Below, one piece after another: positions 20,376 to 35,528 of a stretch of 60,886 bases of DNA (positions within the stretch are counted from its first letter, which is position 1; each line of letters opens with the position of its first letter). Below the pieces are notes generated by a model, which saw nothing but the letters and a program-made list of their open reading frames with translations, had not been told where the DNA came from and did not search any database. This DNA is from Escherichia coli (GTDB lineage Bacteria; Pseudomonadota; Gammaproteobacteria; Enterobacterales; Enterobacteriaceae): NCBI RefSeq assembly GCF_003334385.1, contig NZ_QOWN01000028.1, one strand, 5' to 3'. Position numbers and translations under genes: made by a program.

Positions 20376-21388
<1,013 letters not shown>

Positions 21389-21564: not shown

Positions 21565-22095
21565 ATGGAAAATAAATATTCAAGGTTACAAATCAGCATT
21601 CACTGGCTGGTCTTTTTACTGGTTATCGCAGCGTATTGCGCAATGGAGTTTCGTGGTTTCTTCCCACGTAGCGATCGGCCACTCATCAACATGATTCATG
21701 TTTCCTGTGGCATCTCAATTCTCGTGCTGATGGTCGTTCGTCTTTTGTTAAGGCTGAAATACCCAACCCCGCCGATTATACCTAAGCCAAAACCGATGAT
21801 GACGGGACTGGCGCATTTGGGACATTTGGTGATTTATCTCCTGTTTATTGCGCTGCCAGTGATTGGTTTGGTGATGATGTATAACCGGGGCAACCCGTGG
21901 TTTGCGTTTGGTTTGACGATGCCTTACGCTTCAGAGGCCAATTTCGAACGGGTAGATAGCTTAAAGTCGTGGCATGAAACGCTGGCGAATCTGGGATATT
22001 TTGTCATCGGGTTGCACGCTGCGGCTGCACTGGCACACCACTATTTCTGGAAGGACAACACACTTCTACGCATGATGCCGCGTAAACGTTCCTGA
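21565..22095 (+). CDS. cybB: Cytochrome b561
   Basis: ORF track 21529..22095; the internal ATG at 21565 follows an AGGA site and gives 176 aa (MENKYSRLQISIHW..); multi-pass membrane protein. Confidence 0.88.
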   Translation: MENKYSRLQISIHWLVFLLVIAAYCAMEFRGFFPRSDRPLINMIHVSCGISILVLMVVRLLLRLKYPTPPIIPKPKPMMTGLAHLGHLVIYLLFIALPVIGLVMMYNRGNPWFAFGLTMPYASEANFERVDSLKSWHETLANLGYFVIGLHAAAALAHHYFWKDNTLLRMMPRKRS

Positions 22096-22105
22096 AGGAT
22101 ATTTA

Positions 22106-22169
22106 AAGAAAACGCCTGTACTAAAACCGACCCGTGGTACAGGCGAAGAATACGGGTCTACATCGGAAG
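22106..22169 (-). ncRNA. rydC: Small regulatory RNA RydC (Hfq-dependent)
   Basis: Minus-strand sequence CUUCCGAUGUAGACCCGUAUUCUUCGCCUGUACCACGGGUCGGUUUUAGUACAGGCGUUUUCUU matches my recollection of RydC. Seen directly: the GCCUGUAC/GUACAGGC stem followed by a U-tract. Ends are approximate. Confidence 0.6.
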
Positions 22170-22339
22170 CGCCTATTATATTTATTTGTATGATAAATAA
22201 AACCATAATCCTTGCCCATACGTCCATCTGGCTTATTTTTAATCAATTCACCCGATCTTTGATCTCATCAACGGTATCAAAATAAACCAGCGTATAACGT
22301 TCAAATCGAACATAAGATTCGATAAACCATGGAGGTTAT

Positions 22340-22513
22340 ATGAAAAAACTGGCACTTATTTTGTTTATGGGAACGCTTGTTTCCTTTTATGCCGATGCCG
22401 GGCGCAAACTCTGTTCTGGTTCGAAAGGGGGGATCTCACACTGTACGGCAGGCGGCAAATTTGTCTGTAATGATGGTTCTATTAGTGCATCGAAAAAAAC
22501 ATGCACTAACTGA
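22340..22513 (+). CDS. ydcA: Small secreted cysteine-containing protein YdcA (57 aa)
   Basis: Not in the ORF track (below its length cutoff). Hand translation: ATG at 22340 with GGAGG 5 nt upstream, MKKLALILFMGTLVSFYADA signal peptide, stop TGA at 22511-22513. Confidence 0.75.
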   Translation: MKKLALILFMGTLVSFYADAGRKLCSGSKGGISHCTAGGKFVCNDGSISASKKTCTN

Positions 22514-22557
22514 AGTGTAAAAGGGGTGCCATGAGAAAATGAATCTGCTAGTCAAAT

Positions 22558-22578
22558 GCGCGGGGAAAATCCCCGCGC
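22558..22578 (-). terminator. 3' stem-loop of the hokB mRNA (terminator / fold-back element)
   Basis: GCGCGGGG-aaaat-CCCCGCGC 8-bp stem immediately downstream of the hokB stop on the minus strand. Confidence 0.5.
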
Positions 22579-22584
22579 TTGCCC

Positions 22585-22850
<266 letters not shown>

Positions 22851-23066
22851 TAGCCTGAAAACAGAAAGTCTCAGGCACCCGCAGGCATCCTATGAGGTTT
22901 CCTTAGGGACGAAAATAATCACTTCACGAAATTGCGTGCTGTTTTCCAGAATTTTTCGTCATTCGGGTTAGCCAGTTTAGCCATTCGTTACTCTCTTCAT
23001 TCCAATAGCATTAATTTTCTATGCAATAATTGTTGTAAAAATGTGACGCAAAGAGGTTTTTGGTCA

Positions 23067-29600: not shown

Positions 29601-30140
29601 ATGACTGAAACGATAAAAGTAAGCGAATCACTTGAATTACATGCTGTTGCAGAAAATCACGTCAAACCTCTTTATCAGTTAATCTGTAAAAATAAAACCT
29701 GGTTACAGCAGTCGCTAAACTGGCCGCAGTTTGTTCAAAGTGAAGAGGACACGCGAAAAACGGTGCAGGGTAATGTGATGTTGCATCAACGCGGCTATGC
29801 CAAAATGTTCATGATTTTCAAAGAAGATGAACTTATCGGCGTTATCTCGTTTAATCGTATTGAACCACTGAATAAAACCGCTGAAATAGGCTACTGGCTG
29901 GACGAATCTCATCAGGGGCAGGGGATCATTTCTCAGGCGCTGCAGGCATTGATTCATCATTACGCCCAGTCTGGTGAACTTAGACGCTTCGTGATCAAAT
30001 GTCGGGTGGACAATCCGCAAAGCAACCAGGTCGCTTTGCGCAATGGTTTTATCCTTGAAGGTTGCCTGAAACAGGCTGAGTTCCTGAATGATGCCTATGA
30101 TGATGTGAACTTATACGCGCGTATTATCGATTCACAATAA
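29601..30140 (+). CDS. rimL: Ribosomal-protein-L7/L12 serine N-acetyltransferase (GNAT)
   Basis: ORF track 29586..30140; ATG at 29601 follows a GGAGA site and gives 179 aa ([16 protein letters not shown]..). Confidence 0.85.
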
Positions 30141-31112
30141 CCCTGCCAGCGGCGTTCGCGTAATGCGCTCCTCGCCGTTAATGACTTTTGGACCACGGAC
30201 ATGAACCGTGTCGCCATCAAAGGCTTCAACGACGGCGTGGTCGGTTAACTCCACATGGTTTTCAATTATCACCGCACCTGTAATACGGCTCTCACCTTGT
30301 ATGACAACGTGCTCGTCGAGCAGAATCGGTCCGCCACGTACCACGGCATTTCCGCCAACCAAGACATGATGTTTTAACACACAATTACCTTCCACAATGG
30401 CATATTCCGCCACCTGCGAACTGTAATGAATCGTCGGAATGGCATCTTCTTCTATGCCAGCTTTCACCTGCGCGTGACCGTAGACTTTAGCGCAATCGCA
30501 TAGCCAGACATTGTTCTCTTCATTACCTTCAATACTGGCAAAATCAAAAACTTCGGCGCGATGTTCAATAAAAGCATACCGGACGACGGCATCGCCATAA
30601 ATTTGTGCCTGGTGGACAATACGCGAGGCGCTAACCCTTGCGCGATCATAAATTTGGAGCAGGAGTTGATGGTCGGGCGTTAAGCCTTGTGCGGCGACGA
30701 TCATAGAATGTTGATCAATTAAGGCGTGACCAAATATTCTACATTGCCCGTAAACTAATGAGTCATGAATGGTGACGCTGTCACTTATATATGCACCCTG
30801 GCTGATTTCACTATTATCGATCCAGACGTTATCCGTTGCGTAAACCTCTCCCCACAGCACGCTGGTGCCGGTGATACGCGTATTACCGGAAATCACCGCT
30901 CCGCCGAACGCAATAGCATTCTGGTCGTAAATCCAGCAATTTCCTTCTTGTGCTAACACCGTTTCGCGATCGATCCAGCCGCCAGCGGCTCCTGCTATCA
31001 CATCGTTAAAATCGCTAATGGCGATAATCTGCCGTAATAACACATTTTTTTTAGTGCCATCTTCCTGATAACTAAAGGCTCGCTGTTCTTCACTTAGACG
31101 ATATTTGCGCAT
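30132..31112 (-). CDS. ydcK: Hexapeptide-repeat (left-handed beta-helix) protein YdcK, putative acyltransferase
   Basis: 326-aa minus-strand ORF; its 3' end overlaps the rimL 3' end by 9 nt (convergent overlap). Confidence 0.82.
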
Positions 31113-33821: not shown

Positions 33822-34312
33822 ATCCGGTGCGCCGTAAAACCCCATCCTTCAGGGCGGGGATATAAGGCGCGGTTTTCCACCTGACCAGGTGTTTGCTGTT
33901 GTTCAATGTATTGGCGGATGACGGATATTGGCGCACCTCCGCAGCTACTGGCAAAATAGCCAGGACTCCACAAAACGCCTTTGTAGTAATACCTGAATGC
34001 AATATCTGGTCGATCTCGTCGCAGTCACCTACCCGATACGCCTTTGAGGCTGTTTACCAGACTGGATATCGCCAGTTTGGGAGGATAGTTAATTAACAAA
34101 TGGACGTGATCTGGTTCGCCATCCATTTCAACCAGTTCAGCTTCAAAATCAGCACATACATTTGAAAAGTAAGTGCGTAGTTTTTCTGTCGCGTCATGGT
34201 CAAAAATCTGGCGTCGGTATCTGGTGACAAAGAGCAGGTGAACATGCATCAGGAAAACACAATGCCTTCCACGCCGGATATCGGTTTCTTTTTTCACAGA
34301 CCAAAGTATCAT
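33806..34312 (-). pseudogene. tnpA: IS200/IS605-family Y1 (HUH) transposase TnpA, interrupted by an in-frame TGA
   Basis: ORF track 34025..34312 (95 aa) contains the HUH motif (HVHLL). The same frame continues past TGA at 34025-34027 into ..SPGYFASSCGGAPISVIRQYIEQQQ.., the conserved C-terminal segment of this transposase family, ending at a stop at 33806-33808. Confidence 0.65.
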
Positions 34313-34319
34313 TTGACCT

Positions 34320-35528
34320 GTGAAACGATTACAGGCATTTAAATTCCAGTTAAGACCCGGTGGTCAACAGGAGTGTGAAATGAGGCGCTTCGCAGGCGCA
34401 TGTCGTTTCGTTTTCAATCGTGCTCTGGCACGTCAGAATGAGAATCATGAGGCCGGTAATAAATACATCCCTTACGGGAAAATGGCTTCCTGGCTGGTTG
34501 AGTGGAAAAATGCCACTGAAACGCAATGGCTTAAAGATTCTCCCTCACAGCCATTGCAACAGTCACTGAAAGACCTTGAGCGGGCTTACAAAAACTTCTT
34601 CCGGAAGCGGGCTGCTTTTCCCCGATTCAAAAAGCGGGGACAGAATGATGCATTCCGCTACCCGCAGGGCGTTAAGCTCGATCAGGAAAACAGCCGTATT
34701 TTTCTGCCGAAACTGGGCTGGATGCGCTACCGGAACAGCCGTCAGGTCACGGGTGTTGTGAAAAATGTCACTGTCAGCCAGTCCTGCGGTAAGTGGTACA
34801 TCAGTATTCAGACAGAAAGTGAAGTATCAACTCCGGTTCACCCTTCAGCATCAATGGTCGGGCTGGATGCTGGCGTGGCTAAACTCGCCACGCTGTCAGA
34901 TGGCACAGTCTTTGAGCCTGTAAACAGTTTTCAGAAAAACCAGAAGAAGCTGGCGAGACTTCAGCGACAGTTAAGCCGCAAGGTCAAATTCAGCAACAAC
35001 TGGCAAAAGCAGAAACGCAAAATACAGCGACTGCATTCCTGTATCGCAAATATCCGCAGGGACTACCTTCACAAAGTCACAACGGCCGTCAGCAAAAACC
35101 ACGCAATGATAGTCATTGAGGATTTGAAGGTCAGCAACATGTCAAAGTCAGCAGCGGGTACGGTCAGCCAGCCGGGGCGCAATGTCCGGGCAAAATCAGG
35201 TTTAAACCGTTCGATACTGGATCAGGGCTGGTATGAAATGCGCCGCCAGCTTGCGTACAAGCAGCTCTGGCGTGGCGGTCAGGTGCTTGCTGTTCCGCCA
35301 GCGTATACAAGCCAGCGTTGCGCGTACTGTGGTCATACAGCGAAAGAGAACCGCCTGTCACAAAGTAAATTCAGATGCCAGGTATGTGGATATACAGCGA
35401 ACGCCGATGTAAATGGCGCTCGCAACATTTTAGCGGCGGGGCACGCCGTTCTTGCCTGTGGAGAGATGGTGCAGTCAGGTCGCCCGTTGAAGCAGGAACC
35501 CACCGAAATGATTCAGGCGACAGCCTGA
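34320..35528 (+). CDS. insQ: IS200/IS605-family TnpB (RuvC-like RNA-guided endonuclease family; IS609 transposase B)
   Basis: 402-aa ORF starting at GTG. Conserved N-terminal [10 protein letters not shown] motif; RuvC-like motifs ([14 protein letters not shown]; [11 protein letters not shown]; DVNGARNI) and a CxxC..CxxC zinc finger (CAYCGH..CQVCGY) are all present in the translation. Confidence 0.85.

Follow-up and report, generated by a model that had tools for sequence, protein, structure and literature searches.

Knowledge of RydC, a small regulatory RNA, goes back to the early 2000s; its crystal structure with Hfq, its target cfa and its repressor YieP have all been defined. RydC of Salmonella enterica is the molecule of the Hfq co-crystal and also the one with which the activation of cfa was discovered. 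In the crystal, the 3′ poly-U tail of RydC is placed in the proximal groove of Hfq, while the nucleotides U23/U24 and U46/U47 touch the rim of the protein; the pseudoknot of the RNA is required for its stability (PMC4337610). The free 5′ end of RydC pairs with the long isoform of the cfa mRNA, which has a 212-nt leader, over an RNase E site. This pairing stabilises the cfa mRNA and opposes its Rho-dependent termination. In addition, RydC modestly represses the confirmed targets pheA and trpE; reports also name yejABEF and csgD as targets. The gene itself is repressed by YieP, a GntR-family protein: a rydC′-lacZ fusion shows 20-fold higher activity in a yieP mutant of E. coli, and Northern blots detect RydC only in this mutant (PMC11340327). 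Owing to YieP, wild-type K-12 under standard conditions has RydC at a level that can hardly be detected.

Two other Hfq-dependent small RNAs, ArrS and CpxQ, act on cfa. The ArrS site in the cfa leader overlaps that of RydC, and ArrS also shields the mRNA from RNase E. CpxQ, which is processed from the 3′ UTR of cpxP, acts on the long cfa leader as well, but represses cfa. Both RNAs are unrelated to RydC in sequence, fold and locus, and neither of them contains a pseudoknot.

The window, i.e., the whole stretch of E. coli DNA that was analysed, has a length of 60,886 bases. The Rfam 15 library (4,227 families at curated thresholds) was run over both of its strands, and two matches were obtained, RydC and “sok antitoxin”. 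The RydC family (RF00505) matched the minus strand at 22169..22106 with a score of 92.5 bits and E = 5e-17 in the covariance-model scan; the gathering score of this family is 48 bits. The alignment is ungapped and covers model positions 1–64 of 64 with a posterior probability of 1.00. The first-pass annotation had recognised the Hfq-dependent RydC on this strand at exactly these coordinates and had named a covariance-model search as the way to check it; the search bears out the reading, and so does the comparison with E. coli K-12. Positions 22060–22345 of the window, which extend from the cybB end to the ydcA start and include the promoter, are 100% identical to K-12 MG1655 over 286 nt. In the K-12 reference annotation, the ncRNA gene rydC (b4597, “small regulatory RNA RydC”) is located at 1491442–1491506 on the minus strand, which corresponds to positions 22105–22169 of the window and exceeds the Rfam match by one base at the 3′ end. 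The 3′ ends of RydC mapped by Term-seq in K-12, 1491443 and 1491442 on the minus strand, correspond to positions 22106 and 22105, and their scores (1.25e6 and 2.4e6) are among the highest in that region of the table (PMC7815308). Based on the family match, the identity with b4597 and the Term-seq ends, the rydC gene occupies positions 22105–22169 of the minus strand and encodes a small RNA of 64–65 nt, whose +1 nucleotide is 22169 and whose 3′ end is 22106/22105.

The neighbours are also those that the first-pass annotation had listed, both on the opposite strand to rydC. The convergent gene cybB, encoding cytochrome b561/superoxide oxidase, lies at 21565–22095 (+), and the divergent gene ydcA, encoding a small periplasmic protein, lies at 22340–22513 (+). 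PMC11340327 describes the same context: cybB is convergent, and in E. coli and Shigella the neighbour on the 5′ side is ydcA. Over the 286 nt compared with K-12, nothing differs: the RNA, the promoter, the allele of the probable YieP operator, the distance to cybB and the divergent position of ydcA are the same. Over 4.5 kb, the closest substitutions are two single-nucleotide changes, 21423 upstream of cybB and 22410 in ydcA. The former is an A>G change in the gapC–cybB intergenic region; gapC itself (20376–21376, minus strand; type I glyceraldehyde-3-phosphate dehydrogenase) is a pseudogene, as in K-12, with a frameshift and an internal stop, and appears as several pieces in the six-frame ORF list. 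The latter is a C-to-T change leading to the P24L substitution in YdcA (…GRKLCSG… vs …GRKPCSG…), and the records that carry the T allele name the product “hypothetical protein” and not YdcA.

Taken together, it is almost certain that positions 22105–22169 of the minus strand are rydC, the gene of a small RNA with a pseudoknot fold, repressed by YieP and activating cfa. Every defining feature of RydC that was examined is present, and no result speaks against the assignment. The family assignment, the identity with K-12, the pairing of the helices, the covariation of helix 2, the promoter elements, the complementarity of the seed to cfa and the distribution were computed here, while expression, the 3′ end, Hfq binding, repression by YieP and activation of cfa are taken from the literature on the identical K-12 sequence. 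It is likewise from the literature on this identical sequence that the segment is known to specify an RNA of about 64 nt which would bind Hfq and activate cfa. RydC of the window is thus already known and is the same as the reference copy, and its identification adds no novelty.

The RNA, counted from nt 1 at position 22169, has the sequence CUUCCGAUGUAGACCCGUAUUCUUCGCCUGUACCACGGGUCGGUUUUAGUACAGGCGUUUUCUU(U). Its single-stranded 5′ seed, CUUCCGAUGUAGA, comprises nt 1–13 (22157–22169). Helix 1 is formed by the 5′ arm GACCCGU (nt 12–18, 22152–22158) and the 3′ arm ACGGGUC (nt 35–41, 22129–22135), which follow the Rfam consensus pairing with seven of seven pairs being Watson–Crick. Helix 2, which is also the terminator stem, is formed by the 5′ arm CGCCUGUAC (nt 25–33, 22137–22145) and the 3′ arm GUACAGGCG (nt 49–57, 22113–22121) with nine pairs out of nine. 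Only helix 1 is encoded in the Rfam model, and helix 2 is the hairpin of the minimum free energy (MFE) fold; over both helices, all 16 pairs are Watson–Crick in the window. Since the 5′ arm of helix 2 sits within the loop of helix 1, the fold is an H-type pseudoknot, and this topology agrees with the published structure of RydC (PMC4337610). The nucleotides at U23/U24 and U46/U47 are U in the RNA of the window, too. The U-rich 3′ tail UUUUCUU(U), at 22105–22112, contains seven U in 8 nt; it serves as the terminator tail and binds the proximal face of Hfq. All of these elements are on the minus strand. Folding the single sequence by MFE gives no better result than folding shuffled sequences (z = −0.48), as expected of a method that has no means to represent a pseudoknot.

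The 9-bp stem of helix 2 and the tail UUUUCUUU make up an intrinsic terminator. The first-pass annotation had noted a terminator hairpin here, and the terminator does exist; its stem, though, is at the same time helix 2 of the H-type pseudoknot and not a plain stem-loop. The distance of about 10 nt past the cybB stop that had been given for the hairpin holds for the 3′ terminus of this RNA, which is 10–11 nt past the stop, whereas the base of the hairpin (22113) is 18 nt past it.

Homologues of rydC were collected from five genome loci and 76 metagenome loci, nearly all of the latter being E. coli, and fell into eight RNA variants. Six distinct full-length variants, from E. coli, one divergent lineage of Escherichia, Citrobacter amalonaticus, Citrobacter koseri and a metagenomic locus that is more distant (L048), were aligned. 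The RF00505 threshold was passed by all seven homologous loci scanned, with 65–90 bits; L048 has a RydC score of 83.1 bits, and its CybB is 83.5% identical. The search patterns fixed nt 1–10 and nt 12–18, which are the seed and the 5′ arm of helix 1, and left nt 11 free. For this reason, the invariance of the seed (nt 1–10 and 12–13) is not independent evidence; nt 11 is A in six of the six variants. Helix 1 is invariant in the six variants, and since its 5′ arm was also fixed by the patterns, it provides no evidence of covariation either way.

As for the full pseudoknot, standard pairs were found in 100% of the 96 pair cells of the six variants. In helix 2, both partners are replaced in a compensatory manner between genera in four of the nine pairs (G-C to A-U, U-A to C-G, A-U to G-C and C-G to U-A). 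In none of 500 shuffles was the covariation score or the percentage of paired cells as high as observed, and in the control in which the 3′ partners were slid by 1–3 columns, the pairing was 27–46%. Given the small set of related sequences (n = 6), the covariation of helix 2 is supportive, not statistically strong, and what it suggests agrees with the published structure.

Salmonella RydC shares with the RNA of the window the family, the topology of the pseudoknot, the seed, the UU steps, the tail and the usual 3′ neighbour cybB (PMC11340327, PMC4337610). The differences are drawn by analogy with L048: at its top, helix 2 would be CGU/ACG, as in L048, vs UAC/GUA in E. coli, the loops would carry single-base insertions, the gap to cybB would be about 80 nt vs 9 nt, and the 5′ neighbour would be another gene.

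The same alignment bears on the reading that the minus strand encodes a small protein here. Two minus-strand ORFs, 22066–22227 (53 aa) and 22121–22246 (41 aa), are indeed present in the mechanical six-frame list. However, transcription begins at 22169, downstream of both of their start codons (22227 and 22246), which are therefore absent from the RydC transcript. Moreover, L048 has two separate single-base insertions within the RNA (columns 20 and 44), which shift any frame between them, and conservation tracks base pairs rather than codons. With the starts outside the transcript and the L048 indels fitting an RNA and not a coding frame, the coding reading was rejected, and the chance that it is correct is considered negligible.

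It is equally close to impossible that no independent small RNA exists and that the segment is only the 3′ UTR or terminator of cybB with an incidental Rfam match. The segment is located immediately downstream of cybB, as this reading would have it, but the RF00505 match (E = 5e-17) is on the strand opposite to cybB, and a perfect −10 box is correctly spaced from the 5′ end of RydC. The identical RNA has a mapped minus-strand 3′ end, Northern detection, an Hfq crystal structure and genetics. In C. amalonaticus, rydC is conserved though it is 1.6 kb away from cybB. For K-12, the assignment of the segment to the cybB 3′ UTR alone is already refuted by the published data.

The minus strand upstream of nt 1 of rydC reads ...TTTTATTTATCATACAAATAAATATAATAGGCG|C. 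The −10 box TATAAT is at −11..−6 (22175–22180, minus strand), and no recognisable −35 box was found in the sequence upstream; the rydC promoter is described in the same terms in PMC11340327. The TATAAT box is present in 82 of the 83 homologous loci. The −10 box of C. koseri rydC is TATACT. A generic promoter scan, for which a −35 box is mandatory, did not detect the rydC promoter for this reason. The only candidate that it gave nearby has a −10 hexamer whose end is at 22190; with 21 nt between it and the start site, it is too distant and was rejected.

The main text of PMC11340327 gives no location for the YieP operator at rydC. The YieP motif derived from ChIP-exo is atTTGTaTGAcaAAT, and rydC and ydcA are among the YieP targets selected for study (PMC7642389); the supplement of the same paper contains no coordinates of the rydC/ydcA site. 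When the motif was compared with the window, its best match across the whole stretch was the 15-bp palindrome ATTTGTATGATAAAT at 22184–22198 (read on the plus strand), i.e., −15..−29 relative to rydC, with one mismatch at a low-information position. This candidate operator for YieP, a repressor of the GntR/FadR type, is proposed on the basis of the motif and of conservation. The palindrome ATTTGT-N3-ACAAAT is found just upstream of the −10 box in Escherichia, in both Citrobacter species and in L048, while the sequence farther upstream diverges between the loci. In C. koseri, the centre of the palindrome is ATG vs CAT. Among the 83 loci, 65 have the perfect palindrome ATTTGTCATACAAAT, and 16 have the K-12-type form with one mismatch, ATTTATCATACAAAT (both given for the rydC strand); the window and K-12 carry the latter, minority allele. 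As a check, the motif was searched for in 8 kb around yohJK, the operon most strongly repressed by YieP, and the sole match, AATTGTATGATGAAT, was found 24–38 nt upstream of the yohJ start codon.

Judging by the motif, its position and its conservation, the palindrome at 22184–22198 is the probable operator of YieP. A YieP dimer on this palindrome in the promoter spacer would block RNA polymerase and hold rydC near silent. The placing of a probable YieP operator in the spacer of the rydC promoter is a small addition to what is known about RydC. Another perfect palindrome, TTGTATGACAA, of 11 bp and the same as the core of the YieP motif, is present at 30297–30307 inside ydcK (30132–31112, minus strand). 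Its flanks misfit the full 15-bp motif, and it may be a chance occurrence.

The cfa gene lies outside the window, and the K-12 cfa leader was used for the analysis of the seed. The best duplex between nt 1–14 of RydC and this leader is formed by nt 3–13 with positions −109..−99 of cfa. It consists of 11 bp including one G-U pair, has an energy of −17.7 kcal/mol, which was equalled by one of 1000 shuffled seeds, and abuts the published RNase E site, ...UCGG|AUUAU. The search for the complement of the 11-nt seed in the cfa region, exact or with up to two mismatches, found nothing; a two-base offset of the duplex and its G-U pair kept the site from being matched. According to the proposed mechanism, the seed would pair with the cfa leader over the RNase E site with the help of Hfq, the cfa mRNA would be stabilised and Rho counteracted, and more cyclopropane fatty acid synthase would be produced. 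Other mRNAs, namely pheA and trpE and the reported yejABEF and csgD, would be weakly repressed by RydC.

It was also suggested in the first-pass annotation that the rydC hairpin may terminate the transcription of cybB. In bidirectional intrinsic terminators, the stem is preceded by an A-tract and followed by a U-tract, which gives a U-run on each strand. The rydC hairpin resembles them in that one GC-rich hairpin is located between convergent units, a few bases from a stop codon: the gap between the cybB stop codon and the 3′ end of RydC is just 9 nt, and a spacing of 8–10 nt was noted in every Escherichia locus examined. The mirror hairpin on the plus strand is stable, with an 11-bp stem and −15.8 kcal/mol, and no alternative terminator-like site exists on the plus strand between cybB and ydcA. 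However, the U-run, which in a bidirectional terminator is present on both strands, is found here on the rydC strand only. The plus-strand hairpin is followed by AAGAAUAC, with one U in 8 nt vs seven in eight on the rydC strand, and UACAUCGG comes after the mirror of helix 1. The terminator scan of the plus strand detected no site in 22096–22340.

The mapped 3′ ends do not favour termination of cybB at the hairpin either: of the two convergent transcripts, only RydC has ends at it. The K-12 Term-seq tables contain no plus-strand 3′ end between 1491416 and 1492144, and none between 1491416 and sokB (PMC7815308). The only nearby plus-strand end, 1491416 (position 22079 of the window), is upstream of the hairpin and falls within cybB, where 16 nt separate it from the last base of the stop codon; it is 26–27 nt from the 3′ end of RydC, and its score is about 1e3 vs 1–2e6 for RydC (PMC7815308). 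Processing, polymerase stalling and noise are the candidate explanations of this end. The absence of a plus-strand 3′ end could be explained by low expression of cybB and is not a strict refutation.

The close spacing is not kept outside Escherichia: C. koseri has about 37 nt between cybB and rydC, L048 has about 80 nt and C. amalonaticus has about 1.6 kb. Furthermore, C. koseri has its own canonical terminator in the sense of cybB, ACCCCGCGTAATGCGGGGT followed by TTCTTTT, between the cybB remnant and rydC. In the analysed C. koseri locus (L006), this terminator is at 8732–8750. Against E. coli CybB, the cybB of this locus (8765–9295) aligns as three out-of-frame pieces and, judged by these matches, may be a pseudogene. 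The same locus contains a fluoride riboswitch at 3981–4053.

Thus, the suggestion that the rydC hairpin doubles as the terminator of cybB was not borne out, with the U-tract, scan site and Term-seq end lacking on the plus strand and the close spacing confined to Escherichia, and we regard it as unlikely. In the untranslated gap, C exceeds G on the plus strand from about 22195. Both Rho-dependent termination and read-through towards ydcA are possible for the cybB transcripts. No entries for cybB, rydC or ydcA were found in the SMRT-Cappable-seq supplements examined, which list full-length transcripts. A literature search for bidirectional terminators returned nothing relevant, and a search for cybB, rydC and terminator returned general papers only.

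If cybB of Escherichia has no terminator of its own, then, with a gap of 9 nt, the read-through transcript would contain a perfect antisense of RydC and the polymerases would collide head-on. As a result, RydC could be lowered or titrated, or the cybB transcript trimmed. We consider such interference between the two genes improbable, slightly more so than termination of cybB at the hairpin, although the weak 3′ end at 22079 would fit polymerase stalling or processing of the duplex under it.

Several other features of the window and of related loci can be noted. The second Rfam match, “sok antitoxin” (RF01794, 109.7 bits), is at 22729–22880 on the minus strand, which is the strand of hokB/mokB. 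In the K-12 reference, sokB is on the plus strand, at the equivalent of positions 22782–22838; because the match is on the opposite strand, the 157-nt RF01794 model seems to match the leader of the hok/mok mRNA and not Sok. In the divergent Escherichia strain E. coli E69 (L004), tandem hok/sok-type Rfam elements are located beside rydC, at 1742–1894 and 2238–2389, vs one in the window. The gene yncP (22539–22607, plus strand, 22 codons) is convergent with hokB (22585–22734, minus strand) and overlaps its 3′ end. Farther along the window are the toxin genes hicAB (39949–40587) and ortT (48052–48225). At 33887–35528, a remnant of IS200/IS605 tnpA, truncated and with an internal stop, adjoins an intact insQ, a gene of a TnpB-family RNA-guided endonuclease.

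The rydC locus is widespread in E. coli. A 115-base query containing rydC and its promoter was found as a single copy in 5416 of the 5426 complete E. coli genomes, and a 1.1-kb query around the site matched with at least 95% identity in 5,417 of the 5,426. The 1.1-kb query matches E. coli SCU-104 at 100%, and this strain has eight differences from the window in 50 kb. The PGAP-annotated RefSeq record of SCU-104 contains no feature between cybB and ydcA, and eight E. coli records sampled across the ranking have no annotated feature at the rydC locus. The expectation of the first-pass annotation that protein-based annotation would miss RydC is thus confirmed in these records. The automated annotation of RefSeq omits rydC, and to a protein-centred reading the locus appears as an empty gap of 244 bp.

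Should the improbable interference between cybB and rydC be true, it would couple the respiration under oxidative stress to the control of cyclopropane fatty acids. The two natural alleles of the palindrome in the rydC promoter spacer bear on the question if YieP acts on rydC directly and if the derepression of RydC varies between strains.
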